NCBI GenBank assembly: GCA_965200025.1
Contig: OZ241325.1
Coordinates: 1,099,150 to 1,163,149, forward strand
Reading direction: 5' to 3'
From: Bdellovibrionales bacterium
Lineage (GTDB): Bacteria > Bdellovibrionota > Bdellovibrionia > Bdellovibrionales > UBA1609
DNA: 64,000 bases
A program made the position numbers and the translations under genes. The notes under the pieces are model-generated. The model was not told the DNA's origin. It searched no databases and worked only from the letters and a program-made list of their open reading frames with translations. Of this stretch, positions 11,417 through 54,355 are shown one piece after another. Numbering within the stretch: the stretch's first letter is position 1; each line of letters begins with the position of its first letter.

Positions 11417-11444
11417 TTGACAAAAAATGGGGGGGGGTAAAAAT
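11417..11444 (+). promoter_or_regulatory. Poly-G-spacer promoter cassette, copy 1 (G9)
   Basis: TTGACA-AAAAAT-G9-TAAAAAT. Confidence 0.65.
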
Positions 11445-11470
11445 GGTATCTCTACACAAAAGGTGAAATT

Positions 11471-11953
11471 ATGATGTTTGGTTTTTTTCTTCCCCTGGCA
11501 CTTGCTGGCTTTACTGCTCTGTCTTTTGCACAAAACCCCCCATCCCATGCAGCAGCAGTGCTTTGTCGATGTACACTGCAAGTGACAAAAACTAAAGAGG
11601 AAAGCCCCCATTCACAAAACCTTACAAAGGCTCAGGAGTGGTGTGTAAATTATGTTAACACCCTTTTAAAGGCAAAAGGCCACACCGGGGAATCCCAGCT
11701 CACGGCACAAGCCAGCTTTCATAGTTTCCAACCCGATCAGGATGTCTATGTGTGTGAAGCCAAAAGCCAGGAGCATTTTGCCAGTTTTGGATCTTCCCAT
11801 GAAGAGGCAAAAAAAAATGCCTACCAATCATGTCTCACCTTAATGGAACAACATTTTAATGTTTTCACTCCGGATATGGAATACCAGGTCCACCCACCGG
11901 ATGTTTTGCTCGAAGACTGCCACCCTGTAAATCCACAAACCACAATGCCCTAA
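11471..11953 (+). CDS. Secreted hypothetical protein
   Basis: Signal-peptide-like N-terminus (...ALSFA-Q) and several Cys residues. Confidence 0.75.
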   Translation: MMFGFFLPLALAGFTALSFAQNPPSHAAAVLCRCTLQVTKTKEESPHSQNLTKAQEWCVNYVNTLLKAKGHTGESQLTAQASFHSFQPDQDVYVCEAKSQEHFASFGSSHEEAKKNAYQSCLTLMEQHFNVFTPDMEYQVHPPDVLLEDCHPVNPQTTMP

Positions 11954-11991
11954 AAAACCACAAAAACAAAGCTTCCCAATACCTCAATACT

Positions 11992-12084
11992 TGGCGGAGA
12001 GAGAGGGATTCGAACCCTCGAGGTGCGGTTTAGACACCTACACGCTTTCCAAGCGTGCGCCTTCAACCACTCGGCCACCTCTCC
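11992..12084 (-). tRNA. tRNA-Ser(GGA)
   Basis: GGAGAGG stem, CACGC-TTGGAAA-GCGTG anticodon arm, long variable arm, GGTTCGAATCC and CCA. Confidence 0.97.
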
Positions 12085-12355
12085 CTCTGGTAGGAATGGA
12101 AAACACAAACTATATCACTCTTCAGGTCCCATAACAACTTTTCCCACCCCCCTATCACTTGATACACCGCTTTATTCGCCATGAGGATAAAGATTCCACA
12201 GATTCTACAACACACAAGCCAAAGCTTTCTCTAAAGAGAAAGCTCAGGAAATACCCTCACCTTATCCTCATCCTCCCCCTCCCCTTCCACAAAAAAACCT
12301 TCTTTTCTGTTTTTACTTTATTTTCTTTTCTGTTTTTTTAGTGTTTAATAAGCTT

Positions 12356-15300
12356 ATGAGCAAAGCTTCTTTTGTACATCTGCATACACACACACATTAT
12401 TCTCTGTTAAAATCCTCATGCACGGTGTCCCATTTGGTGGATCAGTGTATCAAACACCAGCAGCCCGCTTTGGCCATTACTGACTATGGCAATATGTTTG
12501 GGGTTTTGGATATGTATTTTTCTGCCATGGACAAGGGTGTTAAACCCATCCTGGGTTTGGACATTTGTTTATCGCTTCAGCCCTTAAAGCACAGAGAATC
12601 AAAACCTGTCCAGCAAAAATACTGTAACCTGGTGCTTTTGGCCCAAAATCAGGAAGGTTATAAAAATCTTTGTAAAATCAACACCATAGCTTATAAAGAG
12701 GGTTTTTATTATGTGCCACGGATCGATTTAAAAAATCTGGAACAACACAACCAGGGTGTGATAGCTCTCACAGGGGGTTTTTCTGGAGTCTTAAACAGTA
12801 CTTATTTGAAATCCGGACCTGATGCAGCACTTAAAATTCTTTCCTCACTAAAAAGTATTTATAAAGACCGCCTTTATATGGAAATCAACCGAATAAACAG
12901 CCCGGAGTGGGACAGAGCCAACACTTTCTTAATGGAAACCGGCAAGAAAGAAAACATACCCCTGATAGCCACCAACAATGTACATTATTTAAACAGGAAA
13001 GACCGCATGGTGCAGGATGTGCTTCACTGTATTGGTATCAACCGCACCTTACATGATCGAAGCCGTGAGCGTCTTCCCTCTGATCAACTATACTTTAAAA
13101 GCTCTGAGGAAATGAAAGAGCTGTTCCACGATTTGCCCGAAGCCTGTGAAGGCACCTTACACTGTCACGAACGCTGCAACCTTCAATTTACCGTTCAAAA
13201 AGGGGGAAGGCCCATTTACCACCTGCCCCGGCTCAAACTTTCTGAAGGGGCCAAAAACCCCAAAACCACACTTAAGGAATTAAGCTTTAAGGGGCTTCAG
13301 AAAAGGTGGGAGGAGTTAAAAAAGCAAAATAAAAACCTTTCAGAAACAGACAAAAACACTTACAAAGACCGGCTGGAAAAAGAGCTGAAGATTATCACCA
13401 CCCGGGGCTTTTCTGATTACTTTCTTATTATTTACGACTTTGTCCATTGGGCCAAAGAGCAGGGTATCCCTGTGGGGCCGGGCCGGGGGTCCGGGGCCAG
13501 CTCTTTGGTGGCCTATTGTCTGGAAATTACAGATTTAAACCCCATGCCTTACCACCTGCTTTTTGAAAGATTTTTAAACCCGGAGCGTATTTCTCTTCCT
13601 GATTTTGATGTGGATTTTTGCCAGGAAAACCGCGGACGGGTGATTGAGTATGTTACAGAAAAATACGGAGAGGATTATGTGGCCCAGGTGATGACTTACG
13701 GACGGCTTCAGGCCCGGGCTGCCACCCGGGATGTGGGCCGTGTGATGGGCATGAGTTATACAGAGGTGGATCGTGTCGCCAAGCTCATACCTGAAAAATT
13801 AGGCATCACTTTAAAGCAGGCCGTGGAAAGCAACACTCAGCTGAAAGAGCTTATGGACACCGACCCCCAGGTAAAAACCCTTATCACTTTGGCCCGTCAA
13901 ATTGAGGGACTTATCCGCCATGCCAGCATCCATGCCGCAGGGGTTATTATTGCCAACCATCCCATTAGGGACTATGCCCCTCTTTACCCGGGAGCACAGA
14001 GGGAAAATGTTATTCAAAGCGATTTGTATCACACAAAAAAAATAGGACTCGTTAAATTTGATTTTTTGGGTTTAAAAACTCTGACCCATATCCGCCAGGC
14101 CCTTCAACTCATCAATAAAAAAAACCATTCCCACCTTTCAGAAAAAAATATTTCTCTGCAAGATCCGGGGATTTACGAAATTATGTGCCGGGGAGACACC
14201 AAGGGGGTTTTTCAGTTTGAGGGGGAAGGTATCACAGACCTTTTAAAAAAGGCCCAGCCCTCATGTTTTGAGGACATTGTGGCCATTAATGCCCTTTACC
14301 GGCCGGGACCTATGGAAATGATCCCCTCTTATCTGGAGCGTAAAAAGGGGCTTATTAAAGTGGAGTATTTGTTTTCAGAGCTGGAGTTTATTTTAAAGGA
14401 AACCTACGGTGTGATTGTGTATCAGGAGCAGGTCCTTTTGATTGCGGCCCGTATTGCCGGTTACAGTTATGGGGAGGCGGATGTACTTCGCCGGGCCATG
14501 GGGGAAAAAAAGACCTCTGTGATGAAGAAACAAAAAACCCGTTTTCTGACAGGGGCCAAAAAAAACAACTTTGATTTAAAGAAATCAGAAAAACTTTTTG
14601 ATTTGGTGGCTGAGTTTGCCAAGTATGGATTTAACAAATCCCATGCTGCGGCCTATTGTGTTTTGGCCGCTCAAACCGCTTATTTAAAAAAATACCACCC
14701 GGTGGAGTTTTTTGCCTCTTTACTCACAGTGGAGATCAACAACACCGACAAAATGATAAAATATGTGGCAGACACAAAAGCCCATGGCATTAAGGTTTTA
14801 CCCCCTCATATTAATCATTCAGAATATCTTTTCACCACGGGGGAAAACTGTATTTACTTTTCCCTGGGAGCCATTAAGGGAGTGGGAAGACCTGCTGTGG
14901 ATGCCATACAAAAAGCCAAAAACACTTTAAAAGACAAAAAATTTAAATCTGTGATGGAGTTTTTTGAAACTATGGATACAAAAAAAGTCACCAAAAAAAC
15001 CATAGAATCCCTGGTAAAGGCCGGAGCTTTTTCAGGTATGGATATCAACGAATCAGGGATTTTATCCAATTACGAAAATCTTCTCAAACAGGTGGAACAA
15101 AAAAAACAGGACAAAGCCAGCGGACAAATCACTTTGTTTCAAAAAACACACCTGACACCTGTCTTAAAATCCTCCACCCTGTGGTCAGAAGAACAAAAAC
15201 TGGAATACGAAAAATCTGTCATGGGTTTTTATTTAAGCCAGCATCCTTTAAATCGCATGGAGTATTTAAGGGAAAGCTTAAAAGTTATACCCATAGCCTC

Positions 15301-15817
15301 TCTTTCGCATCAAAAACACAAAAGCAGTTGTTTTACATGGGGGCTTTTGGAGGAGTTAAGGGAAATCACAACCAAAAAGGGAAACACAATGGCCTTTGGA
15401 AAACTGGAGGACAACACAGGAAGTGTGGAAGTGGTGTTTTTTTCTGATGTATATGAAAAATTTGAACAGCACATTAAAACAAAAAAAGCTCTTCTGGTGA
15501 AAGCCACTTTGGAAAAAAACACCCGGTCCAATGGAAACAAACTGATAGCCGGAACCATACAACCTGTGGAGGAGAGAATACATCACTGCCAAAGAGTGGT
15601 GATTTACCTGACAGACAAAGAGCAGGACAAACTGCACACTTTAAAAAGTATTTTAATGCAATACACAGGGGAGGTGCCTCTTTATTTTTCTGTTCAGGTG
15701 AAAAACAAAAACATCCCCCTAAAACTGAACATGACAAGAGGGGTACGGGTGAATTTGGAGTTTTTAAGTCAAATAAGCAAAGTGGTGGGGGATCACAAAA
15801 AGGTGAGGATTTTTTAA
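12356..15817 (+). CDS. dnaE: DNA polymerase III alpha subunit
   Basis: FVHLHTH PHP start, GPGRGSGASSLVAY, PDFDVDF, KFDFLGL, FNKSHAAAY, QITLF clamp motif and OB domain. Confidence 0.97.
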   Translation: MSKASFVHLHTHTHYSLLKSSCTVSHLVDQCIKHQQPALAITDYGNMFGVLDMYFSAMDKGVKPILGLDICLSLQPLKHRESKPVQQKYCNLVLLAQNQEGYKNLCKINTIAYKEGFYYVPRIDLKNLEQHNQGVIALTGGFSGVLNSTYLKSGPDAALKILSSLKSIYKDRLYMEINRINSPEWDRANTFLMETGKKENIPLIATNNVHYLNRKDRMVQDVLHCIGINRTLHDRSRERLPSDQLYFKSSEEMKELFHDLPEACEGTLHCHERCNLQFTVQKGGRPIYHLPRLKLSEGAKNPKTTLKELSFKGLQKRWEELKKQNKNLSETDKNTYKDRLEKELKIITTRGFSDYFLIIYDFVHWAKEQGIPVGPGRGSGASSLVAYCLEITDLNPMPYHLLFERFLNPERISLPDFDVDFCQENRGRVIEYVTEKYGEDYVAQVMTYGRLQARAATRDVGRVMGMSYTEVDRVAKLIPEKLGITLKQAVESNTQLKELMDTDPQVKTLITLARQIEGLIRHASIHAAGVIIANHPIRDYAPLYPGAQRENVIQSDLYHTKKIGLVKFDFLGLKTLTHIRQALQLINKKNHSHLSEKNISLQDPGIYEIMCRGDTKGVFQFEGEGITDLLKKAQPSCFEDIVAINALYRPGPMEMIPSYLERKKGLIKVEYLFSELEFILKETYGVIVYQEQVLLIAARIAGYSYGEADVLRRAMGEKKTSVMKKQKTRFLTGAKKNNFDLKKSEKLFDLVAEFAKYGFNKSHAAAYCVLAAQTAYLKKYHPVEFFASLLTVEINNTDKMIKYVADTKAHGIKVLPPHINHSEYLFTTGENCIYFSLGAIKGVGRPAVDAIQKAKNTLKDKKFKSVMEFFETMDTKKVTKKTIESLVKAGAFSGMDINESGILSNYENLLKQVEQKKQDKASGQITLFQKTHLTPVLKSSTLWSEEQKLEYEKSVMGFYLSQHPLNRMEYLRESLKVIPIASLSHQKHKSSCFTWGLLEELREITTKKGNTMAFGKLEDNTGSVEVVFFSDVYEKFEQHIKTKKALLVKATLEKNTRSNGNKLIAGTIQPVEERIHHCQRVVIYLTDKEQDKLHTLKSILMQYTGEVPLYFSVQVKNKNIPLKLNMTRGVRVNLEFLSQISKVVGDHKKVRIF

Positions 15818-15820
15818 AGA

Positions 15821-16147
15821 ATGAAAAAACTTTATCGATTTATTTTACAGTTTTTACATCGTCCGGTCTGGGTTATTATAGCCTGTGGTATTTTAATGTC
15901 TGCACATATTGTTTTTGATGGCACGCTTTGGCAAATTTACAGCCTTTCAAAAAACCGAAAAGTTCTGGAGTTGAGGATAGACATGATACACAAAAAAAAC
16001 AAAGAGGTGGAAGGCAATTTAAAAAAACTCTCTTCTGATTCCTCTTTTTTGGAAAAAGAGGCCAGGGACCGACTCAACCTGGCCGGCGAAAACGACTTAA
16101 TCTTCCTCTTCCCGGAAGAGGAAGAACTCACACCCCCCCGGGAATAA
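15821..16147 (+). CDS. Septum formation initiator (FtsB/DivIC-like) protein
   Basis: N-terminal TM helix, coiled coil and LEKEARDRLNL..END.IF tail. Confidence 0.7.
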   Translation: MKKLYRFILQFLHRPVWVIIACGILMSAHIVFDGTLWQIYSLSKNRKVLELRIDMIHKKNKEVEGNLKKLSSDSSFLEKEARDRLNLAGENDLIFLFPEEEELTPPRE

Positions 16148-17054
16148 AGTTTTTAGGATTCAAAAAAAATTCCCGGGCCTGGTGAGTGTCTTTTTGAATT
16201 TGAAGGGTAAGTTTTTCCACCGTGGGGAATTTTTTTTCTTTCCTGAGGGGTTTTAAAACCTCCACCTCACACCACTGCCCGGTTTTCCACAAATCGCCAC
16301 CCTTTAACAAATGCACTTCTATCTGGTAAGATTTTTTATTCCCATCCAAAGAGGAAAAAGTGGGTCGCCAGCCAATATTCATCACGGCAGGCAAAACAGC
16401 TTTGTTTCTTTTGACACGGGTCAGGTACACCCCTCTTTGAGGTAAAATTTGCTCTCTGGCACATTTTAAATTCAAAGTGGGAAAGCCCATTTTTTTGCCT
16501 CTTCCTTTTCCTCTCACCACCTTCCCCTGAAAAGCAAAAAACCTTCCCAGAAGGGCAGACACCAAATCCCATTTCCCTTTTGCAATACCCTGCCTCACCT
16601 GTGAGCTGGAAATTCTTTTCCCCTTATACTCACAACCTCTCACCATATTCACTTTAAAGTGACCAGCCCGTGCAGTATGCTTTAAAAGCTCTTTGTCGCC
16701 CCTTCCCTGAAAACCAAAGCGAAAATTCTCCCCCACACAAAACACAGAAGGTTTGTATTTTTTTACAATATAATCCTCAATAAACTCCTGTGGGGAAAGT
16801 TTTGCAAAAGCTTTTGTAAAGGGTTGAATGATGACATAATCCAAACCCCATTTTTTTAAGAGCTGTTTTTTTTGTTCATACAGGGGAAATAACAGGGGGA
16901 CCGGCTTTAAAGAGGCCAGAACATAAGAGGGATGGGGCCAAAAAGTCAAAAGACAGGATTTTTTTTTGTACCTGCGGGCCAGGCTTACCACCTTTTGGAT
17001 TAAAAACTGATGCCCTCTATGAAGCCCATCAAAGTTACCCACAGTTAAAATCAT
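16128..17054 (-). CDS. ribF: Bifunctional riboflavin kinase/FAD synthetase
   Basis: GNFDGLHRGH, ISSS, GFPTLN, NIGWRPTF and EVHLL. Confidence 0.95.
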   Translation of the reverse strand: MILTVGNFDGLHRGHQFLIQKVVSLARRYKKKSCLLTFWPHPSYVLASLKPVPLLFPLYEQKKQLLKKWGLDYVIIQPFTKAFAKLSPQEFIEDYIVKKYKPSVFCVGENFRFGFQGRGDKELLKHTARAGHFKVNMVRGCEYKGKRISSSQVRQGIAKGKWDLVSALLGRFFAFQGKVVRGKGRGKKMGFPTLNLKCAREQILPQRGVYLTRVKRNKAVLPAVMNIGWRPTFSSLDGNKKSYQIEVHLLKGGDLWKTGQWCEVEVLKPLRKEKKFPTVEKLTLQIQKDTHQAREFFLNPKNFIPGGV

Positions 17055-17097
17055 TTTCCCGATCCCAACAGGGACTTCGCCCTCTGAAAGTTAACAG

Positions 17098-17577
17098 TTA
17101 CACCAACCGGGAAAACACAATATGGGCTATGATATCGGCCCGGGCCGCAAGCTCAGAGTCCACATAAGCCTCCCCCCTTCCCCAGTAAAAGTGGTTTTTT
17201 TGACGCTTCATCTCCACTTGCAGTTTTAAAACATCTCCAGGTACCACAGGCTTTTTAAATCGCACATGTTCGGCCCCCACAAAAAAAATTTCTTTCATGG
17301 GAGGGTCCGAAGGCAAAGCCCCGCAACACAAAGCCCCGGCCTGGGCAATAGCCTCTAAAATTAAAACCCCCGGCATAACAGCTTTGTGGGGAAAATGCCC
17401 CGGGAAAAAAAAATCTCCACTGGTGACATTCTTCACAGCCTTTAAAACACGGCCCACCACCTGCCCCGGATCTTTGGCCTCAAGAGACAAGACCTTATCC
17501 ACCAGCAAAAAAGGGTGCCTGTGGGGAAGTCGCTTTTTTATCTCCTCCACATCCAAAGGGGCTTGTAATTTTGTCAT
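17098..17577 (-). CDS. fabZ: 3-hydroxyacyl-ACP dehydratase
   Basis: LPHRHPFLLVD, FPGHFP..AVMPGVLILEAIAQ and FKKPVVPGD. Confidence 0.95.
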   Translation of the reverse strand: MTKLQAPLDVEEIKKRLPHRHPFLLVDKVLSLEAKDPGQVVGRVLKAVKNVTSGDFFFPGHFPHKAVMPGVLILEAIAQAGALCCGALPSDPPMKEIFFVGAEHVRFKKPVVPGDVLKLQVEMKRQKNHFYWGRGEAYVDSELAARADIIAHIVFSRLV

Positions 17578-18134
17578 TTGCCCTTAATTTTTTTGTAAGC
17601 CCGTACCACCTGGGCAGTCAGGTCCATCTTTGGATTCACCCATATCAGGCTGTCACGGTTTTTAATCAGGTCCACTTTTTCCTCAGCCGCCACAAGGGCC
17701 GCAGCTTTTTGTATTTTTTTCATGACTGTTTTTCTCAACTCCGTCTCTTTTTTTTGAAACTTCATCTCCTGCTCTCTGGCAAATTGCTCAATACGCATCT
17801 GCATCTGTTGTATCTCCTCGTATTTCTTCATTTTCTCCTCTTCAGACAAAATGGCCATACCTTTCTTGATTTCCTCCACTTCCTCTCTGAATTTTTTGCT
17901 TCGGTTCTGAATGTTTTGTTGGATTTTGTTTTTATCCGCCTCCAAAATTTTGCGAATACGCTTTTGCTCCCCTGTTCGCTCCACGGCTTCATTCACGCTG
18001 ATATAGGCCATTTTGTGAGAAGCCACCTCCTCCAGAGACTTTTTGGCCTGAACCTCCCCCACCAGCATAAGCCAGAGGCAAAAAAAGCTTAAGCCCGTTT
18101 TTAAACCCGTATAATGTTGTGTTGTTCTTTTCAT
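17574..18134 (-). CDS. skp: Skp/OmpH periplasmic chaperone
   Basis: Signal peptide, KMAYISV, coiled coil and DLT..V end. Positioned between bamA and fabZ. Confidence 0.82.
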   Translation of the reverse strand: MKRTTQHYTGLKTGLSFFCLWLMLVGEVQAKKSLEEVASHKMAYISVNEAVERTGEQKRIRKILEADKNKIQQNIQNRSKKFREEVEEIKKGMAILSEEEKMKKYEEIQQMQMRIEQFAREQEMKFQKKETELRKTVMKKIQKAAALVAAEEKVDLIKNRDSLIWVNPKMDLTAQVVRAYKKIKGK

Positions 18135-18222
18135 TTTTTTCTCCTTCCGGTTGAGATCATACTTTGTTTTTTATAACTCGATGTTTGTGCTTTTGTCACC
18201 TCCTGATTTTTTTTTACTTCAT

Positions 18223-21465: not shown

Positions 21466-21539
21466 AAATGCATGTCAAAGGTCCAGTTTTTGTGTTTCCA
21501 AAGAAAAACCCTTGAAAAAAAATGGGGGGGGGGTAAAGT
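21466..21539 (+). promoter_or_regulatory. Poly-G-spacer promoter cassette, copy 2 (G10), with upstream GTCAAAGGTCCAG block
   Basis: TTGAAA(21512)-AAAAAT-G10-TAAAGT. Confidence 0.7.
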
Positions 21540-21613
21540 CAGTTTTAAATCAGATATTTTGGCTGGTTTGATATTAAAAACATTAAATAAAACTTATCTA
21601 ATGGGAGGTTATT

Positions 21614-21886
21614 ATGAAAAACTTTTTTTGCACTATACTATTTATGGGGGTTTTGTGCTTTGGATTTAGCACATATTCTCAAAACCAAAACACTGAATGG
21701 AAAACCTGCTTAGAGACACTTGGTGGCTGGTTTTCCGGGGGTGAGTGTATAGAACACCCAATACAATCCATCATTGGAGTTAAGTATGACGGGAATACAG
21801 TGGATGTAACTCTTGAAATGATTCGTTTCAGGTGTTTAATTAATAACTGGATTGATGGCCGGCATTGTTCAACCAATGATCAGTAA
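21614..21886 (+). CDS. Small secreted Cys-containing protein
   Basis: GGGAGG RBS, signal peptide MKNFF...STYS-Q and four Cys in the mature part. Confidence 0.75.
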   Translation: MKNFFCTILFMGVLCFGFSTYSQNQNTEWKTCLETLGGWFSGGECIEHPIQSIIGVKYDGNTVDVTLEMIRFRCLINNWIDGRHCSTNDQ

Positions 21887-22453: not shown

Positions 22454-22687
22454 AACCCCACTATATCACACCAAAAATCGCCGGGATACCCCTTTTTTAA
22501 GTTTTTTTTGGGCATGATACCAAAGAGGGCTGAAAAACCACCGATTTTGAGAAACACACCACAGATGCACAAAAAAACCTCATTTAAAGCTTGTTAAGAA
22601 GCCCAAAACGATTATGAACACCACCACCCCCCCCCAGCCAGCCATTAGGGCATTATCCAGGTCATAAATAGCAAAAAAATCACATTA
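22451..22687. repeat. About 230-bp intergenic repeat, copy A, including an extended -10 for the coiled-coil gene
   Basis: Aligns by eye with 23554-23785. A partial copy lies at 26121-26168. Confidence 0.85.
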
Positions 22688-23269
22688 TCTGTATGGTTTT
22701 TTGTATGGCTTTTTGTCTGGCTCTGTTCTAATGATCCTAACATTATCAGGATCAGGAAGATTCATTCTTAGTTTCTTTTCTGGTATATCAGTTTGTATAT
22801 AAAGTATCTGAAGAGAATCAAGTCCTGAAAATACTCCATAAGGTATCTTTAAATTGTTACCAAACAATCTAAGCATCCTAAGAGAATGAAGATCCGAAAA
22901 TATCCCGGAAGGTAAAGTACTTAACTTGTTCCTCTCCAAATCAAGCTTTATAAGAGAAGTAAGACCCGAAAATACCCCAACAAGCAACTCTCTTAAGTTG
23001 TTATTATCCAGATCAAGCGTCTCAAGAGAAGTAAGAGCCGAAAAGTCACCCACCTTCAAAGATTCGATACTTCTACCTCTTAAATATAAGGTTTTTATCT
23101 GATCCAAAAGATAATCTGCCAAATTACAGTCTATTCTGGAATCCACATTTTCTTTAAGCTTTTTCACAATCGCATCCCTTACCTGCGAGGTACGACCACA
23201 AACTGGAATAAATATCTCACCATAAGCAAAAAAATTAAAAGAAAAAGCAGCCATTATAAAAAACTTCAT
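22685..23269 (-). CDS. Secreted leucine-rich-repeat protein
   Basis: GGAG RBS, signal peptide, VCGRTSQVRDAIV cap and L..L.L..N.L..LP.G.FS.L repeats. Confidence 0.88.
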   Translation of the reverse strand: MKFFIMAAFSFNFFAYGEIFIPVCGRTSQVRDAIVKKLKENVDSRIDCNLADYLLDQIKTLYLRGRSIESLKVGDFSALTSLETLDLDNNNLRELLVGVFSGLTSLIKLDLERNKLSTLPSGIFSDLHSLRMLRLFGNNLKIPYGVFSGLDSLQILYIQTDIPEKKLRMNLPDPDNVRIIRTEPDKKPYKKPYR

Positions 23270-23328
23270 TTTAAGACTCCTAACCCTTCTTGGTTTTGTG
23301 CCATGCATTAAACCTCTCTTAAAGATGT

Positions 23329-23918: not shown

Positions 23919-24964
23919 TTAACCTGGAAGACACTCAGCCGGTGTGGCTAATTGTTGAGTTGGCTGCGGTGTGGGGGAAGGTGTTTGAGGGGAAGGACTT
24001 GGCCTTCGGGGACACTCTGAACTTGAGCAATACCTTGATCCATTCCAACACGAATAAGCAGGTCTTGTGCAATGCGGGGGATTCCCACAGGACCGGGGGG
24101 ATGTACAAGCTTGAGGTGTTGGTGGAGGTGGGGGAGGAGGCGGCGGGGGTGGGGAATTACACTTGCAGGTGGTGGAATTTTGTCCATAAGCACAGTGTTT
24201 TGCCGGACATTCACAGGGGCAGCCAGACTTTGAAGTGTTGAGGAATGTTTTGACTGTTTCCCCTTGTACAACACATCGGTTTTCGCATTGCCCGGAAGAG
24301 TTAGGTATTGTCCCACTTGGGCAGCGGCAGGCTTTGCCTCTTGGATAGTTAGGGTTACAGGTGAGGACATCCCTCCACACTCTGCCGGAAGGGCAAGCTA
24401 TACACTGAGAGCCGTCCCATTTAGGTTTGTTTGAAGGGCAAGAGCAGTCTGGCCAGGTACCAGCCGTTTTCCCCCCTTCCCCGTCTGCACTACATGTATA
24501 TTTTGTTTTCTTGCATGAATCATCGCAAGACTTTTCAGTGGTGTTGTCTGTCCTGTAACAAGTGTGCTTTGCCTTACAACTCCCTAGCTCACCACATGGT
24601 TTTGGATCTGTACAGTCTTGTTGGGAACAAGCTCCTCTTGTCCAAGATCCACCTGAACCACAACAAGGGCCACCACCAGAGCCACGTCTCTGCTCATAAC
24701 AGTTAAGAGTGTGACCTTGTCTTCCTCCAAAGTTATGTACCTTTATATGGGGTGGAGTTATGATGTTACTTCTCTCCCGGTACTGCAAACAGAAACCTTT
24801 CCATTTACACATCCTATCCCCACGTTTGGGCCATTTCCTGACGGCATATTTAGACTGAAGCTATGAGAGAAGTTTAAAAATAGACTGAAAAAGAAAAGAA
24901 GTGAGAGGGCAATTTCCCCCCCCCCCATTTTTTTTCCTGGAAACCTAAAAAACAAAGTCTTCAT
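23919..24964 (-). pseudogene. Secreted Cys-rich/Pro-rich protein split by an apparent frameshift near 24760-24860
   Basis: The signal-peptide frame from ATG 24964 stops at 24758. The 297-aa Cys-rich body (C.CPS, WDGSQC, poly-Pro) is in the adjacent frame. Confidence 0.6.
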
Positions 24965-25228
24965 ACTTCCCCGCAAAAAAAGGTCGGCCCCAGTAAGGTT
25001 TTTAATCCTTTGAAAGCTTTGTGTCCCGGGGGCTTCCATGGGACCTTATCGGATTAGTCTCAAAAAACTTTAATCCCGGCCACCAGGGGGCTTGTGGGAT
25101 GTTTCAGAGTGAGACACTTTTGGGAACAAACCTGCCTACTTGGTGTGGCCGGCCACTTACTCCCCGGCCACAAAAGGTATCAAAATAGGGGTTATTCTTT
25201 TTTACCTCATGATATTTGTAGCGGACAG

Positions 25229-26942: not shown

Positions 26943-26969
26943 TTGACAAAAAATGGGGGGGGTAAAACT
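26943..26969 (+). promoter_or_regulatory. Poly-G-spacer promoter cassette, copy 3 (G8)
   Basis: TTGACA-AAAAAT-G8-TAAAACT. Confidence 0.65.
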
Positions 26970-27034: not shown

Positions 27035-27508
27035 ATGAAAAATTACTTTTATATTTTGTTATTTTTTGGAGTTTTGCCTTTTCAGAGTCTTGCCCGGAAT
27101 GCAGAGATGGAGAACCTTCTGGACGGTATCTGCTATCTTTTTAGCACCCGTATAGGGGATCAGAAACTTGCTCACATGGATCAGTGGGAAATCCGGGCGA
27201 CCTTTTACCCCAACCTTGAGGGCTGGAAATCAAATTTGGAGGATCTTCAGGGGCAGTGCCAGGTGATTTTTAGAAGAGGAATAATGGATCCCGGAAATCC
27301 TTTGCAAACACATGGCATGACTATACATGTTGTAAAGATTTTTACAGACAAAGCAGAGGCTGAAAACATCCATGGACTAAGCACCCCCATACCCGCCATT
27401 GTTTATGATGGAGAAAACTATCGTTTAAAAACAACCACAGACGGGGAAAACCACCCCACTTATTATGTGGCGGCAAAAAATTTGGAGTTCCTTTTTAACA
27501 TCCAGTAA
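27035..27508 (+). CDS. Secreted hypothetical protein inserted antisense between lolC/E and lolD
   Basis: AAGGAG RBS and signal peptide MKNYFYILLFFGVLPFQSLA. Confidence 0.8.
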   Translation: MKNYFYILLFFGVLPFQSLARNAEMENLLDGICYLFSTRIGDQKLAHMDQWEIRATFYPNLEGWKSNLEDLQGQCQVIFRRGIMDPGNPLQTHGMTIHVVKIFTDKAEAENIHGLSTPIPAIVYDGENYRLKTTTDGENHPTYYVAAKNLEFLFNIQ

Positions 27509-43227: not shown

Positions 43228-43232
43228 TTTCC

Positions 43233-45277: not shown

Positions 45278-45417
45278 TGTAAAATCCCCTGTGATATAAA
45301 AAAGTTGAAACCAGAAATTTTATATGCAAAAGTACATTTATAAGAAAATACACCACAGAAAGCTTAAAAAGAGCAAGAAAGTTTAAAAATTTTTAAAACC
45401 GGAAGGGGTTATTTAAA

Positions 45418-45729: not shown

Positions 45730-45743
45730 AACAACATTCCATA

Positions 45744-46709: not shown

Positions 46710-46715
46710 TCACAC

Positions 46716-47711: not shown

Positions 47712-47763
47712 GAAAACTGCATTGTGTAAAAAGTCATAAACCCCTTATAAGGAACTTTAAAAA

Positions 47764-49008
47764 ATGCCCCCACCCCCCTCTTATTACCCCAAGGCAAAAG
47801 ACCAGGTCAAGGCTCATCCCCACTTAAGGCCAAACAAAACCCCGGAGGCAAAAAAACCTTTGCTTTTAACCCCCGGACCTGTGTGTATGCCCCAAAGGGT
47901 TTTAAAGCAGCTGGCCCAACCTATGATTCACCACAGAAGCAAAGGGGCCAAAGAGTTGATATTAAAAGTACAGGTTTTACTGAAAAAGTTTTTTCAAACC
48001 TCTCAGCCGGTATTGATTTTGAATGCCAACGGCACGGGGGCTATGGCAGCAGCTCTTTTAAACACCCTGTCACCCAAAGACAAAGTGATAGCCTTGTGCG
48101 CCGGCCGGTTTGCCGCCCGCTGGGCGGATATGGCAAAAGCTTACCGCTTAAAAGTTTTGCCCGTCCATGTCCCCTGGGGAAAAGCCATCAATCCTAATCT
48201 GCTGAAAACCCAGCTGCAAAAACACCCCGACACCAAAGCCGTTTTGTGCCAGGCCTGTGAAACCAGCACCGGTGTTTTGCATCCTGTAAGAGAGCTGGCC
48301 CGCTTAACCAAAAACAAACCCGGCACTTTGTTTTTAGTGGATGCCATATCGGCCCTGGGTGCGGTGTCTTTACCCATGGACCGATGGGGAATAGATGCTC
48401 TCATTGGGGGTTCACAAAAATCTTTCAGCCTGCCTGCGGGTATGTCTTTTATTGCTTTGTCCAAAAAAGCATGGCGTTTTAATCAAGGGGCAAAAATGCC
48501 GGTCTTTTACCTGAATTTAAAAAAAGAGCTTCAGGTTCAACAGCAGGGGCAAACCGCCTTTAGCACCAATATCAGTTTTTTAAAAGCTCTTTACGCTTCT
48601 CTTTATCCCTTAAAAACCCACAGGCTTTCTTATTTTCAAAGCAAATCTTTAAAACTTTCCCGCATGACTTTAAAGTTTTGCCAGTGCATGGGGCTTAAAG
48701 TTTTTTCGCAAAACCCCTCCCCTTCTGTAACGGCCTTTCAGCTGCCAGATCATATCGACGGCACTCAACTAAAAGACGATATAGAAAAAAAACATTGTAT
48801 TACTTTTGGGGGAGGTATGGAGCATCTGAAGGGAAAAATCCTGCGGGTGGGGCATTTGGGGGAAATCCCCCCCTCCCGGCTTTTAAAAAGCTTAAAAATT
48901 TTATCCCTGGCCCTTCACAAAAAAGATCCCCGTTTGTTTACCAAAGAAAAAATCAAAACCACTTTTCAGAAAATTACTGGGGAAAAACCCCACAAGTGGC
49001 AATTTTAA
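47764..49008 (+). CDS. Class V PLP aminotransferase (serine-pyruvate/alanine-glyoxylate type)
   Basis: LLTPGP, HHRS, ETSTGV, VDAIS, GSQKS and RVGHLG. Confidence 0.92.
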   Translation: MPPPPSYYPKAKDQVKAHPHLRPNKTPEAKKPLLLTPGPVCMPQRVLKQLAQPMIHHRSKGAKELILKVQVLLKKFFQTSQPVLILNANGTGAMAAALLNTLSPKDKVIALCAGRFAARWADMAKAYRLKVLPVHVPWGKAINPNLLKTQLQKHPDTKAVLCQACETSTGVLHPVRELARLTKNKPGTLFLVDAISALGAVSLPMDRWGIDALIGGSQKSFSLPAGMSFIALSKKAWRFNQGAKMPVFYLNLKKELQVQQQGQTAFSTNISFLKALYASLYPLKTHRLSYFQSKSLKLSRMTLKFCQCMGLKVFSQNPSPSVTAFQLPDHIDGTQLKDDIEKKHCITFGGGMEHLKGKILRVGHLGEIPPSRLLKSLKILSLALHKKDPRLFTKEKIKTTFQKITGEKPHKWQF

Positions 49009-49654
49009 ACTGCCCCAACACCCCTTTTAGGCCGGCAGTAAACTCTTCATAACCGTCATCATCCAGAGCCACCAGTTGTTTTTCATTGTCAAAAGAGGCC
49101 TGGCCTGTAAAAGTCCCTGAAGCAAAAGACCCCTCCAAAGTTACAGAGCCTTTACTGTCTGCAAACACCAAAACCACCTGGGTTCCACTCACATACCCCC
49201 TGTGGCCATTGAGTGTGACCGGGAGCTGATTTTCCGGCTCCTCCAGAGAATGCACCCGTATTTCCATTTGAGAGGCGGGGGCATCCAAAGTCACATTCTG
49301 GTTGTCACCATACAGATTGACTTTCCCCTTAAATTTTAAATTTAACTTGAATAACACCCCTTTACCATTCCCCGGCTCACAGGATATGGAATCCGATTCA
49401 GCATAAGGCTCAATCAAAGTGCCTGAAGAAATAAAATTTTTAAAACTTTGATCAGAGCCTCCCACGCAGGTTATCCCCCCCCAAACCTCCTGATCGTTGT
49501 GGGCGGGACAATCTGTTTGAGATCTGAGGTACACTTCATCCACCCCATACCTGTTGTCTGAGGCAAAGGGCAGGGAAAGAGAGGGGGGCTGGCAGCTAAA
49601 CAGGCACCAAATCCCACCCAAAATCATCAATAAAAACAGACCAGGCTTCCACAT
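48974..49654 (-). CDS. Hypothetical lipoprotein
   Basis: LFSC lipobox and beta-rich body. Confidence 0.75.
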   Translation of the reverse strand: MWKPGLFLLMILGGIWCLFSCQPPSLSLPFASDNRYGVDEVYLRSQTDCPAHNDQEVWGGITCVGGSDQSFKNFISSGTLIEPYAESDSISCEPGNGKGVLFKLNLKFKGKVNLYGDNQNVTLDAPASQMEIRVHSLEEPENQLPVTLNGHRGYVSGTQVVLVFADSKGSVTLEGSFASGTFTGQASFDNEKQLVALDDDGYEEFTAGLKGVLGQFKIATCGVFPQ

Positions 49655-49761
49655 GCCCCTCTTTTCGGCCTTTAACCTTAAAAAACTTTAGTTTTTGATA
49701 TTTACACTTCTGCTGTTTTGAGCTAAAACATTTAAAATTCCAGACTAAAGAATGAAAAATC

Positions 49762-52086
49762 ATGAAAAAAAAACCCACTTCCCCCCCGCCTCAGCGGTCA
49801 GATAAAAAAAACCTTTACAGGGCGGCTTTAAACTTTCACAAAAAAGAACCCCGGGGGAAAATCTCTGTACAGGCCTCCAAGCCTGTGGACACCGACTATG
49901 AGCTGTCCCTGGCTTATAGTCCCGGTGTGGCAGCCCCCTGCCTCAGCATTGCCAAAAACCCTGCACAGGTTTACGACTACACAACCAAGGGAAACCTTGT
50001 GGCTGTGGTCAGCAACGGAAGTGCGGTACTCGGCCTGGGCAATATTGGCCCTTTGGCAGCCAAGCCGGTGATGGAGGGCAAAGGGGTTTTATTCAAGCAG
50101 TTTGCTGGCATTCATGTGTTTGACATAGAGTTAAAGGTCAAAACCCCTGAGGAGTTTATCTCTGTCTGTAAGGCCCTGGAGCCCACCTTTGGTGGTATCA
50201 ACCTGGAGGACATTGCAGCCCCCCACTGCTTTGAAATTGAAAAAAAGCTGGAGGCTGCACTCAATATCCCTGTTTTTCACGATGATCAGCACGGCACAGC
50301 CATTATTACAGCAGCGGCCCTTTTAAACGCCTGTCACTTAAGAGGCAAAAAACTCAGTCAAATCCAAATTGTGTTTAACGGGGCGGGGGCGGCTGCCATT
50401 GCCTGTGCCAAATTGCTCTTAACCCTGGGGGTGAAAAAAAACCATATTGTCATGTGTGATTCCAAAGGGGTTATTCACGCAGGAAGAAAAGACATTAACA
50501 CCTACAAGCAGCAGTTTGCTTTAAAAACCCCTCACAGAACTTTAAAGGCTGCCTTAAAAAACGCGGATGTGTTTATTGGTCTTTCTGTGGGCAACACACT
50601 GACACCCCTAATGTTGAAAAGCATGGGCAAAAGTCCCATTGTGTTTGCTTTGGCCAATCCTGATCCGGAGATCAGGCCCGAGCTGGCCAAAAAAACAGTA
50701 CCTGATGTGATTATTGCCACAGGCCGGAGTGATTACCCCAATCAGGTCAACAATGTACTTGGGTTTCCCTTTATTTTCCGGGGGGCTTTGGATGTGGGGG
50801 CCACCCATATTAACGAGGCTATGAAGAAAGCTGCTGTGTTTGCCCTGGCCCGCCTGGCCCGGGAGAATGTTCCCGACAATGTTTTAAGGGCCTATCAAAG
50901 TGAAAAATTTCACTTCGGCCCGGACTACATACTTCCCAAGCCCTTTGACATGAGAGTGCTGACCACCCTGGCCCCTGCGGTGGCACAGGCAGCCATGGAC
51001 TCAGGCGTGGCAAGAAGGCCCATCAGGGATTTTGAAAAATATAAGCAAACTCTGGCAGGTTTTCAGAGTCGAAAACGGGGTTTTATCCGGCAAACTTTAA
51101 ATCGTATCAAAAACTCTCAAAACTCTTTGCCTAAAATTGTATTTCCCGAAGGAACCTCTCACAGGATTTTAAAAGCCCTTAACACCCTTCATGAGGAAAA
51201 CATCATAAGCCCCATCCTTTTGGGGGACAAAGAGGAAATACGCCAAACAATAAAAAGCAAAGACTTGGACAATATGGACCGTGTGCAAATTGTGGACCCC
51301 ATACATTCCCCCTCTTTTGAGGCTTATGCCCAAAAATTTTACAGTATGAAAAAACGCAAAGGGATTTTAAAAAAAGAGGCTCTTCGTCTGATGAAAGATC
51401 CCAATTACTTTGCCTCCATGATGGTGCACTCAGGAGCTGCTGATGCTCTGATCACCGGGGCCACTGTGAATTATGCAGACAGTGTAAGGCCCATTTTACA
51501 GATTATTGGCACCGGGAAAAGAAAAATCGCCTCTGGTACAAACATTGTACTGATTAAGAATCAAATGTTGTTTTTTGCAGACACCACAGTGAATATTAAC
51601 CCCACAGCAGAAGACATTGCCCACATTGCGGTACACACGGCCCGGGTGGCCCAGTGGATGAACAAAAAACCCCGTATTGCCATGCTAAGTTTTTCCAACT
51701 TTACAGGTAAAAAAGACAACCCCAAAAAAATGAGTGAGGCAGCGGCTCTTGTCAGAAGCTGGTATCCAAGCTGGACAGTGGATGGGGAAATGCAGGCGGA
51801 CACAGCGGTCAACCCTCACATTGTGAAACACATTTTTCCCTTTTGCCGTATTCAAACCGGGGCCAATGTTTTAATATTTCCCAACCTGGACTCTGGCAAC
51901 ATTGCCTACAAACTGGTTCAACAGCTGGGATCGGGAGAGGTCCTGGGGCCTTTCCTTATGGGGGTTAAAAAACCTGCCAATGTTTTACAGCGAACCTGCA
52001 CCACCGAAGAGGTGGCAGGCATGGTGGTTATGACATGCCTTAAAATCCAGGCTTATAAAGAGTTTCAAAAAAAACAAAAAAAGTGA
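49762..52086 (+). CDS. maeB: NADP-dependent malic enzyme with PTA domain
   Basis: [23 protein letters not shown] and [13 protein letters not shown], with C-terminal VDGEMQAD and [12 protein letters not shown]. Confidence 0.96.
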
Positions 52087-52092
52087 CCACCC

Positions 52093-52575
52093 TTAGTTGA
52101 TCTGATAAGGTGCTTGTTGCGATTCAATTTCAGTAATAGCAACATACATAATCCACAGATGCCGCTCTTTTGCTCTGGCGGAGAATAAAGGTGCAAAAGT
52201 GGGAGGGCTTCTGTATTCTACGGTACCTACTGGTATGAGATGACTTTGGGTGTGTATTGACAGAGCTTCACTATACGCTTCCTCTTTATCGCTTCGAGCA
52301 GCGGCATTAATGATTGAAACCCCAGAGATATGAACAGTGTATTTTTCCATTGCTCTCTCTTTATTTCTGGCATAACATGTCCAGTTATTAGTAAAGTGAG
52401 GACTGTCCAATGTGTAGCTTAAATTTTTTGAATTTTTACCTAAGAATTTTGACATAACCACTTTACAGTACTTACGCACCTGCTCATCCAAATAACCGGG
52501 AGCCCATCCTCCGGAACCATAAGAACACCAAAGGCAGGTTAAGCAAACAACTAAAGACATGAGACGGGTTTTCAT
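52093..52575 (-). CDS. Secreted hypothetical protein, paralog of 53734-54231
   Basis: AGGAGG RBS, signal peptide, and shared Y.D.QV.KYCK and AYSEALS.HTQ.HLI. Confidence 0.82.
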   Translation of the reverse strand: MKTRLMSLVVCLTCLWCSYGSGGWAPGYLDEQVRKYCKVVMSKFLGKNSKNLSYTLDSPHFTNNWTCYARNKERAMEKYTVHISGVSIINAAARSDKEEAYSEALSIHTQSHLIPVGTVEYRSPPTFAPLFSARAKERHLWIMYVAITEIESQQAPYQIN

Positions 52576-52644
52576 TTTACTCCTCCTTTTTTTTGATTTA
52601 AGTACTTCAAAACACCTAATATAAGGATTTTGAAACTTAAACCC

Positions 52645-52700
52645 ACTTTACCCCCCCCCCATTTTTTTTCAAGGGTTTTTATAAAAGCTGGACCTTTGAC
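52645..52700 (-). promoter_or_regulatory. Poly-G-spacer promoter cassette, copy 4 (G10)
   Basis: Reverse complement reads GTCAAAGGTCCAG...CCCTTGAAA-AAAAAT-G10-TAAAGT. Confidence 0.7.
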
Positions 52701-52727
52701 CTTAAATTTTCCAGGGGATGGGGATAA

Positions 52728-52828
52728 TGGAAGTCTCATTCCCCTTTAGAGGTTCCGTCACTCTTTCTGGGGAGGTCCCATTGTCCTTTAGAAGTTCCGT
52801 CACCCCCGCCCACTTTGCGGGGGTTCAG
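52728..52828. repeat. Direct repeat with 42-bp period, ending in a REP-like hairpin
   Basis: CCTTTAGA[GA]GTTCCGTCAC occurs twice, followed by ACCCCCGC-N7-GCGGGGGT at 52802-52824. Confidence 0.7.
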
Positions 52829-52910
52829 AACAAAAATACCACATTTTAAGAAAACGCCTTTTCTATAAGTAATAATGGTTTTTAATGCCGCAATGTATAA
52901 TAACTTTCCA

Positions 52911-53032
52911 GAAGGTTCAAGATACTTTAAGTTGACTAAAAGGTGAGTTAACTTATTTTAATAACTCCCTCTAAGGTGTCTTGAGCCTTCCAGAATAAAA
53001 ATCTTAAGGCTTGTCTTTAAGTAGCCACCTTT
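52911..53032 (+). ncRNA. Candidate structured cis-regulatory leader RNA
   Basis: A 19-bp stem (52911-52929/52972-52990) and an 8-bp stem (52930-52937/52946-52953). All four non-WC pairs are G.U. It begins just after TATAAT at 52896-52901. Confidence 0.5.
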
Positions 53033-53064
53033 CGGAGATCACAAACATAAGGGGGAATGGACTA

Positions 53065-53727
53065 ATGAAATTTAATATTAAAAAAATGTGTTTTGGTTTG
53101 TTGTGTTTGTTTTCTTTTATAGCAGCTTCTCATGCTGCTCCACTTCCACTTCATTTTATTAATACAGGGTCCAGTGTGGAAGCAGGCAAGCACTTTGTGG
53201 CAATGGATGTGGGATTAAATCCGAAAAGACTCTCTTACAAAACTGTTCCTTTCTCTTTAGCTTATGCCTTTGGTTTTAAAAAATGGGACTTGGGTTTGTC
53301 TGCATCTTATGCTCTGTCGTATGCTTATCAGGTTTCTCTGATTTCAAAATACCATGTTTTTTCCAAAAACACTTTTAATTTGGGAGTTGCAGGTGCGGCA
53401 GGGGCTGCACATATCGGGATGCTGATTCCAGTTCCTTTTCTGAGTGCTTTTTTGGTTGGCAGTTCCCGGTGGGGGGCTTACGAAGCTGCTTTGTTTTTGG
53501 GTGTCAGCCACCTTTTAATAGGACAAAAAGTTTCGGGAGGTTCCACAGCTGATCAAAAAAATAAAAACCTTGAGGGAGAGAAATTTTTCCGGTGGTCTGC
53601 TGTTCAGGTGGGGACTTCTCATACCTACCACTGGACATCTGATTTTTTCACCACATTGGTTCTCCGCACAAAACTGAAGAAGGTCCAAAATTTTGCACTT
53701 AGCCTACAGGCCCGCCATCTTTTTTAA
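53065..53727 (+). CDS. Probable small outer-membrane beta-barrel protein
   Basis: GGGGGA RBS, signal peptide ending SHA, amphipathic strands and C-terminal L.A.HLF. Confidence 0.72.
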   Translation: MKFNIKKMCFGLLCLFSFIAASHAAPLPLHFINTGSSVEAGKHFVAMDVGLNPKRLSYKTVPFSLAYAFGFKKWDLGLSASYALSYAYQVSLISKYHVFSKNTFNLGVAGAAGAAHIGMLIPVPFLSAFLVGSSRWGAYEAALFLGVSHLLIGQKVSGGSTADQKNKNLEGEKFFRWSAVQVGTSHTYHWTSDFFTTLVLRTKLKKVQNFALSLQARHLF

Positions 53728-53733
53728 GTTTCT

Positions 53734-54231
53734 TTATTTTTCTTGGAAAATTTTAGTAATAGCTAAATACGTAGTATAATTCCCGCTGCGGTCAAATAAC
53801 GTGGGTAGGAGATTATCCATTACATACAAGGGGCTATGTTCGAGTGAATACTCTACACCAGCTACTTCTATGAGATGACCTTGGGTGTGCATTGACAGAG
53901 CTTCACTATACGCTGCTTTTATACTGTTTTGGGAGTCTTCTTTTTTGGCTTGAAATCCAGTTATTTCAGCAATGTATGTTTTTTCTGTATTTTGTTTTTG
54001 TTCCACTAAAGTACACATCCAGATTGTTTTATTGGGATTCATAGATTTCTTATTTCTGAATTTTTTAATTGTAGTTTTATAAGTAAAATTTTTTATATCT
54101 GCCTCTAAATACTTTGCCATAAAAGCCTTACAGTACTTCAAAACCTGATCATCCACATAATCGGCTGTACTATAAGAAGACCAAAGGCTGAAGCCAAGAC
54201 AGGCAACTAAAGACATTAAATGGTTTTTCAT
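53734..54231 (-). CDS. Secreted hypothetical protein, paralog of 52093-52575
   Basis: AGGAGG RBS, signal peptide and shared motifs. Confidence 0.82.
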   Translation of the reverse strand: MKNHLMSLVACLGFSLWSSYSTADYVDDQVLKYCKAFMAKYLEADIKNFTYKTTIKKFRNKKSMNPNKTIWMCTLVEQKQNTEKTYIAEITGFQAKKEDSQNSIKAAYSEALSMHTQGHLIEVAGVEYSLEHSPLYVMDNLLPTLFDRSGNYTTYLAITKIFQEK

Positions 54232-54281
54232 TTTACTCCTCCTTTTTTGTTTTTAAATATCAAAAATAAGACTTAAAATTG

Positions 54282-54355
54282 ATTTTACCCCCCCCCATTT
54301 TTTTTCAAGCTTTTTTTTCAGAAAAACAAAAACTGGACTTTTGACCCGTGCATTT
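54282..54355 (-). promoter_or_regulatory. Poly-G-spacer promoter cassette, copy 5 (G9)
   Basis: Reverse complement reads AAATGCA..GTCAAAAGTCCAGTTTTTGT...CTTGAAA-AAAAAT-G9-TAAAAT. Confidence 0.7.

Follow-up and report, generated by a model that had tools for sequence, protein, structure and literature searches.

Poly-G cassettes in the window and the genes behind them

Five copies of a short promoter-like cassette, each with a run of G between a −35-like and a −10-like hexamer, lie in a 64,000-nt stretch of the genome of a Bdellovibrionales bacterium (assembly GCA_965200025.1, contig OZ241325.1, positions 1,099,150 to 1,163,149). This whole stretch is the window, and coordinates in this section and in Table 1 are window positions unless marked G000 C1. 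The pattern TTGAMAAAAAATG7 matches the window at 11417(+), 21512(+), 26943(+), 52672(−) and 54308(−), and has no match in any of 100 dinucleotide-preserving shuffles. Positions, strands, run lengths (G9, G10, G8, G10 and G9) and spacers (15, 16, 14, 16 and 15 bp) are all as an initial annotation of the window had given them, as are the arms: TTGA(C/A)A on the −35 side and TAAAAA, TAAAGT, TAAAAC, TAAAGT and TAAAAT on the −10 side. The annotation had also reported an upstream block, GTCAAA(G/A)GTCCAG, in three copies, and we find it at 21512, 52672 and 54308. A promoter scan that admits spacers of 16–18 bp lists copy 4 (52672, G10) as the sole window cassette and does not list the G9 copy at 54308.

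Behind every window cassette lies an open reading frame (ORF) for a small protein, with the start codon 27, 74, 66, 69 and 50 nt after the −10 hexamer in copies 1–5, respectively, and with a Shine–Dalgarno-like match ahead of four of the five frames. The products (160, 90, 157, 160 and 165 aa) all begin with a hydrophobic, signal-peptide-like N-terminus, in agreement with the range of 90–165 aa proposed earlier; here and throughout, such starts were called by a crude hydropathy heuristic that looks for a hydrophobic N-terminal window, not by SignalP. The products of 52093–52575 and 53734–54231 are paralogues and the other three are unrelated, so that BLAST clustering recovers the four apparently unrelated families that the annotation had discerned. 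A Pfam scan finds no family in any of the five.

The upstream neighbour is divergent for all five window cassettes; these neighbours are a DNA methylase, an ABC ATPase, an AAA_14/DUF4143 protein and two unknowns. Genes of the defence-island type adjoin window cassettes (54811–59989 and 9441–11105). A further G9 tract (22627–22635, minus strand), about 50 nt 3′ of the stop codon of a leucine-rich-repeat protein gene (22685–23308), has no cassette context.

Table 1. Cassettes, downstream genes and adjoining features of the window
Feature	Coordinates	Strand	Details
Cassette copy 1, type B, without upstream block	11417..11443	+	−35 TTGACA 11417-11422; AAAAAT 11423-11428; G9 11429-11437; −10 TAAAAA 11438-11443; spacer 15
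Cassette copy 2, type A	21474..21539	+	upstream block GTCAAAGGTCCAG...AAAAACCC 21474-21511; −35 TTGAAA 21512-21517; AAAAAT; G10 21524-21533; −10 TAAAGT 21534-21539; spacer 16
Cassette copy 3, type B	26943..26968	+	−35 TTGACA; AAAAAT; G8 26955-26962; −10 TAAAAC; spacer 14
Cassette copy 4, type A	52645..52701	−	upstream block GGTCAAAGGTCCAG... 52701-52673; −35 TTGAAA 52672-52667; AAAAAT; G10 52660-52651; −10 TAAAGT 52650-52645; spacer 16
Cassette copy 5, type A	54282..54346	−	upstream block GGTCAAAAGTCCAG... 54346-54309; −35 TTGAAA 54308-54303; AAAAAT; G9 54296-54288; −10 TAAAAT 54287-54282; spacer 15
160-aa orphan protein, signal-peptide-like N-terminus	11471..11953	+	family 6, 2 genome members
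90-aa Cys-containing orphan protein, signal-peptide-like start	21614..21886	+	family 4, 4 members
157-aa orphan protein, signal-peptide-like start	27035..27508	+	singleton family
160-aa orphan secreted family 0 protein	52093..52575	−	family with 16 cassette-driven members
165-aa orphan secreted family 0 protein	53734..54231	−	structure model, pLDDT 69.9
Gene with poly-G in its 5′ coding region (second class)	24758..25072	−	sigma28-like promoter TAAAGTTT-N11-TCCGATAA 25072-25046; ATG 24964; G11 24926-24916 just before hydrophobic core; in frame; 68-aa product
N6/N4 DNA methylase	9441-11105	−	beside cassettes
AAA_14/DUF4143 ATPase	54811-55965		beside cassettes
1309-aa SIR2_2-domain protein	56060-59989	−	beside cassettes

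One module across the genome

The cassette is repeated throughout the genome (handle G000; 1.93 Mb, two contigs, 42% G+C). Allowing at most one mismatch, the exact motif has 58 genome matches against 0 for the reversed pattern, and a looser expression, [A-rich]-TTGAMA-A5-6-T-Gn-TAAA(A/G)T, finds 74 copies. Their −35 hexamers are TTGAAA (43), TTGACA (28) and TTGCAA (3), and their −10 hexamers TAAAGT (27), TAAAAT (23), TAAAAA (9), TAAAAC (6) and others (9). G9 is the prevailing run (56 copies), followed by G10 (7), G8 (4), G11 (3), G7 (3) and G14 (1), and the spacer measures 15 bp in 37 copies, 16 bp in 20, 14 bp in 10, 17 bp in three and other lengths in four.

Placement of these copies, which the annotation had proposed to examine by such a scan, is nonrandom. 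Against a crude call of 1683 ORFs that covers 87% of the genome, 67/74 cassettes fall outside called frames and 68/74 point in the same direction as the next gene; the upstream neighbour is divergent for 43/74 and co-oriented for 31/74. An ORF of at least 45 aa occurs within 300 nt downstream of 70/74 cassettes, mostly with a Shine–Dalgarno match, and in most copies the start codon is 18–180 nt downstream. Signal-peptide-like starts follow 60/74 cassettes vs. 36.6% of the 1683 crude genes (odds ratio 7.4, p = 3e-14), and 56 of those 60 carry K or R in residues 2–8. Four cassettes (G000 C1: 641506(+), 1182390(−), 1164577(−) and 483856(−)) have no signal-peptide gene downstream; behind them is a conserved stretch of ~120 nt, 83–99% identical between copies, with only a 48–62-aa ORF that lacks a hydrophobic start, and this stretch may encode a small RNA or protein. 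A further cassette, at G000 C1:1783131-1783151, lies ~300 nt upstream of groES (1783448) and points away from it.

We compared information content along the aligned copies, using one representative per protein family. The profile consists of an A-rich stretch, (G)CTTGAMA, a near-invariant AAAAA(A)T, the G-run and TAAA(A/G)T. Two types of copy can be told apart. Type A (38 copies, with TTGAAA in 35) carries the GGTCAAAGGTCCAG block 31–32 nt upstream of the −35 within a shared upstream block of ~40 nt, while the common sequence of type B (36 copies, with TTGACA in 26) is the 30-nt core only. The conserved blocks match TTGACA and TATAAT, and the −10 keeps to TAnAAT-like forms, of which TAGAAT is found in another species. 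Proteins of the largest downstream family share just 23–42% identity, while the core hardly varies.

The boundary of the shared unit is sharp. Ungapped extension proved too crude for comparing copies because of run-length indels, and we used BLAST of the flanks instead: among pairs of copies that precede different families, left similarity abutting the −35 gives 180 links and right similarity gives 10. For example, copies 1072616 and 1069700 are identical over ~72 nt up to the −10 and then lead into unrelated genes. Flank similarity thus stops at the −10, where a promoter, unlike a duplicated gene, would be expected to end. As judged from these features, we predict with high confidence that the cassette is a real promoter module dedicated to the secretome.

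The genes behind the module are diverse. The 70 cassette proteins (median length 167 aa, range 79–608) cluster into 32 BLAST families, with sizes of 16, 9, 7, 4, 4, 2, 2 and 2 and 24 singletons. A Pfam scan of 25 of them (the five from the window and 20 family representatives) gives no match for 22; the three matches are leucine-rich repeats (in the family of 9), ankyrin repeats (in a family of 2) and a trypsin-like protease with TPR/Sel1 repeats. No housekeeping protein occurs among these 25, which bears out the earlier remark that no copy stands in front of a core gene, and a NCBIfam scan of 10 cassette proteins returned 0 matches. The largest family, family 0, is matched 22 times in this genome and nowhere in 40 relatives; its members are 23–42% identical to the window protein. 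A structure model of its 165-aa window member (predicted local distance difference test, pLDDT, 69.9) finds no fold match in the PDB at E ≤ 0.001, and its best score against the Atlas, 0.78, is below the useful range. The cassette ahead of one family-0 member (G000 C1:853016-853447) has decayed (CTGGAAAAAAAAC-G9-TAAAATCAG, without its −35), and the match of this member to the family begins only at profile position 12; the member is probably a copy in decay. The module is predicted to drive a lineage-specific secretome that consists in part of eukaryote-like repeat proteins.

The distribution of the module is patchy. None of 40 relatives, 14 of them congeners, has the exact motif, and a search of 185,579 species, each represented by one genome, finds the exact string in only 11 stretches. 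Two of these belong to metagenome-assembled genomes (MAGs) labelled "Bdellovibrionales bacterium", with 2 and ~6 copies that precede signal-peptide or lipoprotein-like starts; the remaining nine come from unrelated phyla, where the string occurs once or twice. Metagenome contigs add 10 single stretches. In this form, TTGACAAAAAAT-G7-13-TAAA(AT), the string appears in unrelated bacteria that include Acetatifactor, Massilicoli, Muribaculaceae, Alphaproteobacteria, Anaerolineales and Methylococcales MAGs (L012–L022, L029–L038). Matches in unrelated phyla may reflect chance aided by homopolymer richness, or a recurrent promoter design. In one congener (G010; L006, L078–L093) a poly-G repeat of its own, ...AATGACGCGGTGC-Gn-TAAAATGGG..., is dispersed in at least 12 copies with runs of G9, G10, G10, G12, G13, G13, G14, G14, G15, G15, G16 and G21; of two copies whose displayed flanks are identical, one has G18 and the other G14. 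A third type, CCCAGACTAAC-G8-11-TAAA, occurs both in this congener and in G001. The bacterium is probably host-associated. Literature searches of main texts found no description of such a module for this lineage.

A proposed slippage-tuned spacer weighed against its rivals

The best single explanation of these observations, and one that we consider somewhat probable, is a promoter module whose spacer is tuned by slippage. The module would be of the sigma70 type, with an A-rich stretch, a −35 TTGA(A/C)A, a spacer A5-6-T-G9 and a −10 TAAA(A/G)T, and the lineage would have placed it before ~70 genes for small signal-peptide proteins, most of them orphans or eukaryote-like-repeat proteins. Both homopolymers of the spacer, chiefly the G-run, would change length by slipped-strand mispairing, and each change would move the −35/−10 distance between 14 and 17 bp and so alter promoter strength gene by gene. 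The outcome would be a stochastic, heritable and reversible dial on the secretome.

The polymerase that would read such a module can be narrowed down from the gene content. The genome has only three genes of the sigma70 family, RpoD (629 aa), FliA/sigma28 (258 aa) and an RpoH-like factor (299 aa). In upstream regions, pairs of TTGACA/TATAAT-like hexamers outside the cassettes peak at a spacer of 17 (30 observed vs. 13.8 in shuffles), with 16 and 18 enriched too and with no excess at 15 (12 vs. 11.7); housekeeping promoters of this organism thus appear canonical. Because these other promoter-like sites peak at 17, the cassette spacer of 14–16 bp is off-optimum, and its mode of 15 lies outside the 17 ± 1 bp of a canonical RpoD promoter. 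The sigma32 consensus pairs a −35 CTTGAAA with a −10 CCCCATNT 13–15 nt apart; the −35 side fits (GCTTGAAA), while the forward −10 region, GGGGTAAA, differs from CCCCATNT. The sigma28 consensus is TAAAGTTT-N11-GCCGATAA, and the cassette has TAAAGT with no GCCGATAA downstream. We infer that RpoD is the most economical reader of the cassette, and TTGAMA and TAAA(A/G)T are presumably the hexamers actually used.

Within the module, no character changes faster than the length of the G-run. Locally identical pairs of copies differ in run length only, as at 1164768/1166585 (G10/G9), 1072616/1069700 (G10/G9), 518861/520242 (G11/G9) and, for the A-run, 580597/578545 (A8/A7), and two tandem copies in genome G041 have G9 and G8 behind an identical 45-nt upstream sequence. 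Across the 74 copies, 18 have a length other than G9 and ~30% differ in the A-run, while base substitutions in the core are rare. On the slippage reading, the tracts would vary within the population and expression would follow tract length. The conserved state is G9, yet it is G11 that would bring the spacer to 17 bp.

Several observations weigh against a simple spacer dial. G9 is kept in 56/74 copies whatever the length of the A-run (Spearman −0.02), and it is commoner in cassette tracts (56/71) than in other intergenic tracts of at least 8 nt (27/56; p = 4e-4). All six copies in the distant genome G042, whose DnaE is 50–57% identical, are G9 as well. This uniformity, together with the all-G9 copies of G042, seems to point to selection on G9 itself and not on spacer length. 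A 17-bp spacer occurs in only 3/74 copies. The mismatch repair genes are intact (MutS 870 aa, MutL 608 aa), 256 G/C tracts of 8–11 nt lie in frame inside genes, and only 2/56 of the other intergenic tracts look like frameshift junctions; the tolerated in-frame tracts and the scarcity of frameshift junctions imply that G9 is not extremely unstable here. Finally, no second strain of the species was found among 40 relatives, the genomes of 185,579 species and metagenome contigs. The initial annotation had proposed that one promoter module was reused to randomise a secreted-protein repertoire. Reuse of the module holds (74 copies, 32 families, a boundary at the −10), while constancy of G9 opposes its reading of the G-run as a simple dial of spacer length.

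Long G/C homopolymers are a general feature of this genome. There are 423 of at least 8 nt vs. ~12 expected from composition by our own estimate, and their lengths peak at 9 (G8/C8 161, G9/C9 204, G10/C10 44). Coding G tracts were considered as frameshift switches and mostly rejected: they are in-frame GG/GGG/PP/PPP codon runs. We link them to codon usage, in which GGG (33% of Gly codons) and CCC (37% of Pro codons) are the commonest of their kind and GGG-GGG pairs occur at 1.7 times expectation.

The strongest rival holds that the promoter is that of a static regulon, with A6-T-G9 as a fixed recognition or shape element for a dedicated regulator or holoenzyme (e.g., the RpoH-like sigma) and with copies other than G9 as decayed or neutral variants. 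On this view the module would co-regulate the secretome. We regard this as unlikely, though less so than any other alternative. It would account well for the prevalence of G9 regardless of spacer length, with no compensation between A- and G-runs, and for the 6/6 G9 copies of G042, which persist despite a −10 of TAGAAT. Conservation of the spacer on a par with the hexamers, even in the 36 type-B copies that share nothing else, is also as a fixed element predicts, as are intact mismatch repair and the hundreds of coding G tracts that are tolerated; in addition, CTTGAAA equals the −35 of sigma32, and an RpoH-like sigma is among the three sigma70-family factors. A strict recognition element, however, should not tolerate differences of G-length in 18/74 copies and of A-run length in ~30%, nor does it explain locally identical copies that differ in run length only. 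Furthermore, this genome and its congeners have length-variable poly-G tracts in other settings, no candidate for a binding protein emerged, and the promoters of groES and dnaK carry CTTGACA without a G-run.

Two further alternatives are both very unlikely. According to the first, the cassette is a sigma32-like promoter on the reverse strand, CTTTAAA-N14-CCCCATTT, that fires away from the secreted-protein gene. The sigma32 −10 consensus is CCCCATTT, which the reverse complement of the cassette contains, with CTT(T)AAA ~14 nt upstream of it in many copies; divergent upstream neighbours (43/74, including 5/5 in the window) suit this arrangement, as does the copy ~300 nt upstream of groES, which is divergent from its own secreted-protein gene. 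Yet in the 31/74 cases with a co-oriented upstream gene a reverse promoter would fire antisense into that gene, the five divergent neighbours in the window are not heat-shock genes, and groES has a promoter-like site of its own near the gene (CCTTGACA-N17-ATATTT). The strong link is with the forward gene, which is co-oriented in 68/74 copies and has a signal peptide in 60/74.

The second regards the module as a miniature inverted-repeat transposable element (MITE)-like mobile element or a recombination scar that merely resembles a promoter. Its dispersal in high copy number, the ~40-nt upstream block shared by the 38 type-A copies and patchy occurrence among species would all be compatible with mobility. 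Against this, we found no terminal inverted repeat or hairpin, the hallmark of MITEs, in the module: in four whole modules and three upstream blocks, folding is no stronger than in shuffled sequence (z 0.1 to 1.5, and 0.5 to 1.4 for the whole modules), which makes the module neither a terminator nor a hairpin-forming MITE. Placement is also strictly oriented, 18–180 nt ahead of a start codon in most copies, and the 36 type-B copies share the 30-nt promoter core only. The upstream block, lacking a stable hairpin, was separately ruled out as a terminator.

Four sequencing runs, none of them on record as RNA, were found to contain the stretch. Their assembled contigs, compared over a 20-kb stretch with 11 G tracts, break at cassettes, as repeated 31-mers explain; the one 2-nt length difference among them, at a G11 copy, comes with a depth typical of repeats and probably stems from a misplaced paralogue. 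Least credible of all is that the tract lengths arose in assembly: a long-read consensus can get long homopolymers wrong and the G9 peak is genome-wide, but 256 coding tracts of 8–11 nt are in frame within open crude gene calls, Logan contigs of runs X1 and X2 (probably the same sample and not independent) cross several tracts of the 20-kb stretch with 0 gaps, and lengths from G8 to G14 are all called and so have not collapsed to one value.

A second poly-G class, known switches and implications

A second class of poly-G genes accompanies the cassettes. In 15 genes for secreted proteins the tract lies in the 5′ coding region (G9 in nine, G10 in four, G11 in two), between the charged start and the hydrophobic core of the signal peptide, and 14/15 have a promoter of the sigma28 type (TAAAGTTT-N11-GCCGATAC) ahead of them; one member is in the window (Table 1). 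Four of the 15 are in frame with the upstream ATG, and the 11 that are out of frame have open frames of 87–419 codons after the tract. An early tract, mixed frames and a long open frame are what characterise intragenic poly-G contingency genes, and the combination of mixed frames with long downstream frames is, at the level of sequence, the classical signature of translational phase variation. Together with the G9 to G21 repeat of G010, this class counts in favour of a slippage-tuned spacer in the cassette.

Switches built on promoter homopolymers are known: porA, tp0126, fim and vlp are of the kind proposed here. The scale and the use before many families are new. In Mycoplasma hyorhinis, the vlp genes have a poly-A tract in a conserved promoter, and in Bordetella, fim2, fim3 and fimX have a poly-C stretch in a conserved "fim" promoter. 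In both, several genes share a promoter cassette with a homopolymer between an upstream element and the −10, switch independently and encode surface products. Each serves one paralogous family of 3–7 genes, however, whereas the present cassette precedes unrelated genes. In addition, the conserved unit of vlp includes the signal peptide while ours stops at the −10, and Bordetella fim requires the activator BvgA whereas the cassette has no known activator.

Closer in design are porA and tp0126. In Neisseria meningitidis, porA is expressed at a high level with G11, at a medium level with G10 and not at all with G9. In a Treponema pallidum study, tp0126 has poly-G between −35 and −10 with an optimum of 17 bp, G9 predominates in the tprL tract alongside minorities of G8, G10 and G11 within isolates, and many poly-G tracts of at least 8 nt lie upstream of signal-peptide genes, with 76% of 17 tested being variable (PMC7864442). 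As in porA and tp0126, a G homopolymer fills part of a sigma70-type spacer of a surface or secreted gene: TTGAMA and TAAA(A/G)T flank A5-6-T-Gn in the 74 copies, and 60/74 cassettes vs. a background of 37% precede such genes. With G11 the cassette would also reach the 17 bp given there as the tp0126 optimum. In contrast, switches of the porA and tp0126 type stand at one locus or a few loci in the genome of a pathogen, whereas the cassette, a candidate switch, occupies 74 loci before 32 families and has a modal spacer of 15–16 bp and a G9 conserved across species.

Other poly-G repertoires share part of the pattern. The T. pallidum tprE/G/J/L genes and poly-G "phasome" resemble the cassette in having many poly-G tracts ahead of signal-peptide genes. 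However, the tprL tract overlaps the −10 and does not set spacing, whereas the G-run of the cassette lies in the spacer, and the T. pallidum tracts number in the tens and have differing promoter contexts, whereas here one module is reused (74 copies plus the 15 genes of the second class). The intragenic poly-G contingency genes of Campylobacter jejuni and Helicobacter pylori show the same signature as our second class. To our knowledge, these two species are without mismatch repair of the MutS/MutL type, whereas the present genome has both MutS and MutL; unlike their genes, the second class has its tract at a fixed place in the signal peptide of one sigma28-driven gene family. Against this background of described switches, what is new is one module at 74 loci and 32 families in 1.9 Mb, together with a translational class and congener-specific cassettes.

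A bolder reading, which we put forward tentatively, is that 74 transcriptional dials and 15 translational switches (~5% of genes, all secreted) may form the largest known promoter-borne contingency repertoire and combinatorially randomise a clonal secretome. Here A6-T-G9 would be a selected "poised" design conserved across order-level distances, not an accident of slippage, and sister species would each have evolved their own poly-G cassette.

If the slippage-tuned reading is right, contingency loci can form a genome-wide promoter grammar, in which one tiny module sits on dozens of unrelated secretome genes, and such a grammar exists outside the classical pathogens, in an uncultured bacterium with a small genome, despite intact mismatch repair. 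Homopolymer promoter switches have so far been known from few loci in few pathogens. The 74 replicates in one genome provide a natural test bed for how spacer length and sequence relate to promoter strength, and for whether G9 reflects an equilibrium of mutation or a set-point under selection. The motif is also a ready marker for the secreted, possibly host-interacting genes of this lineage, for most of which no homologues are detectable.

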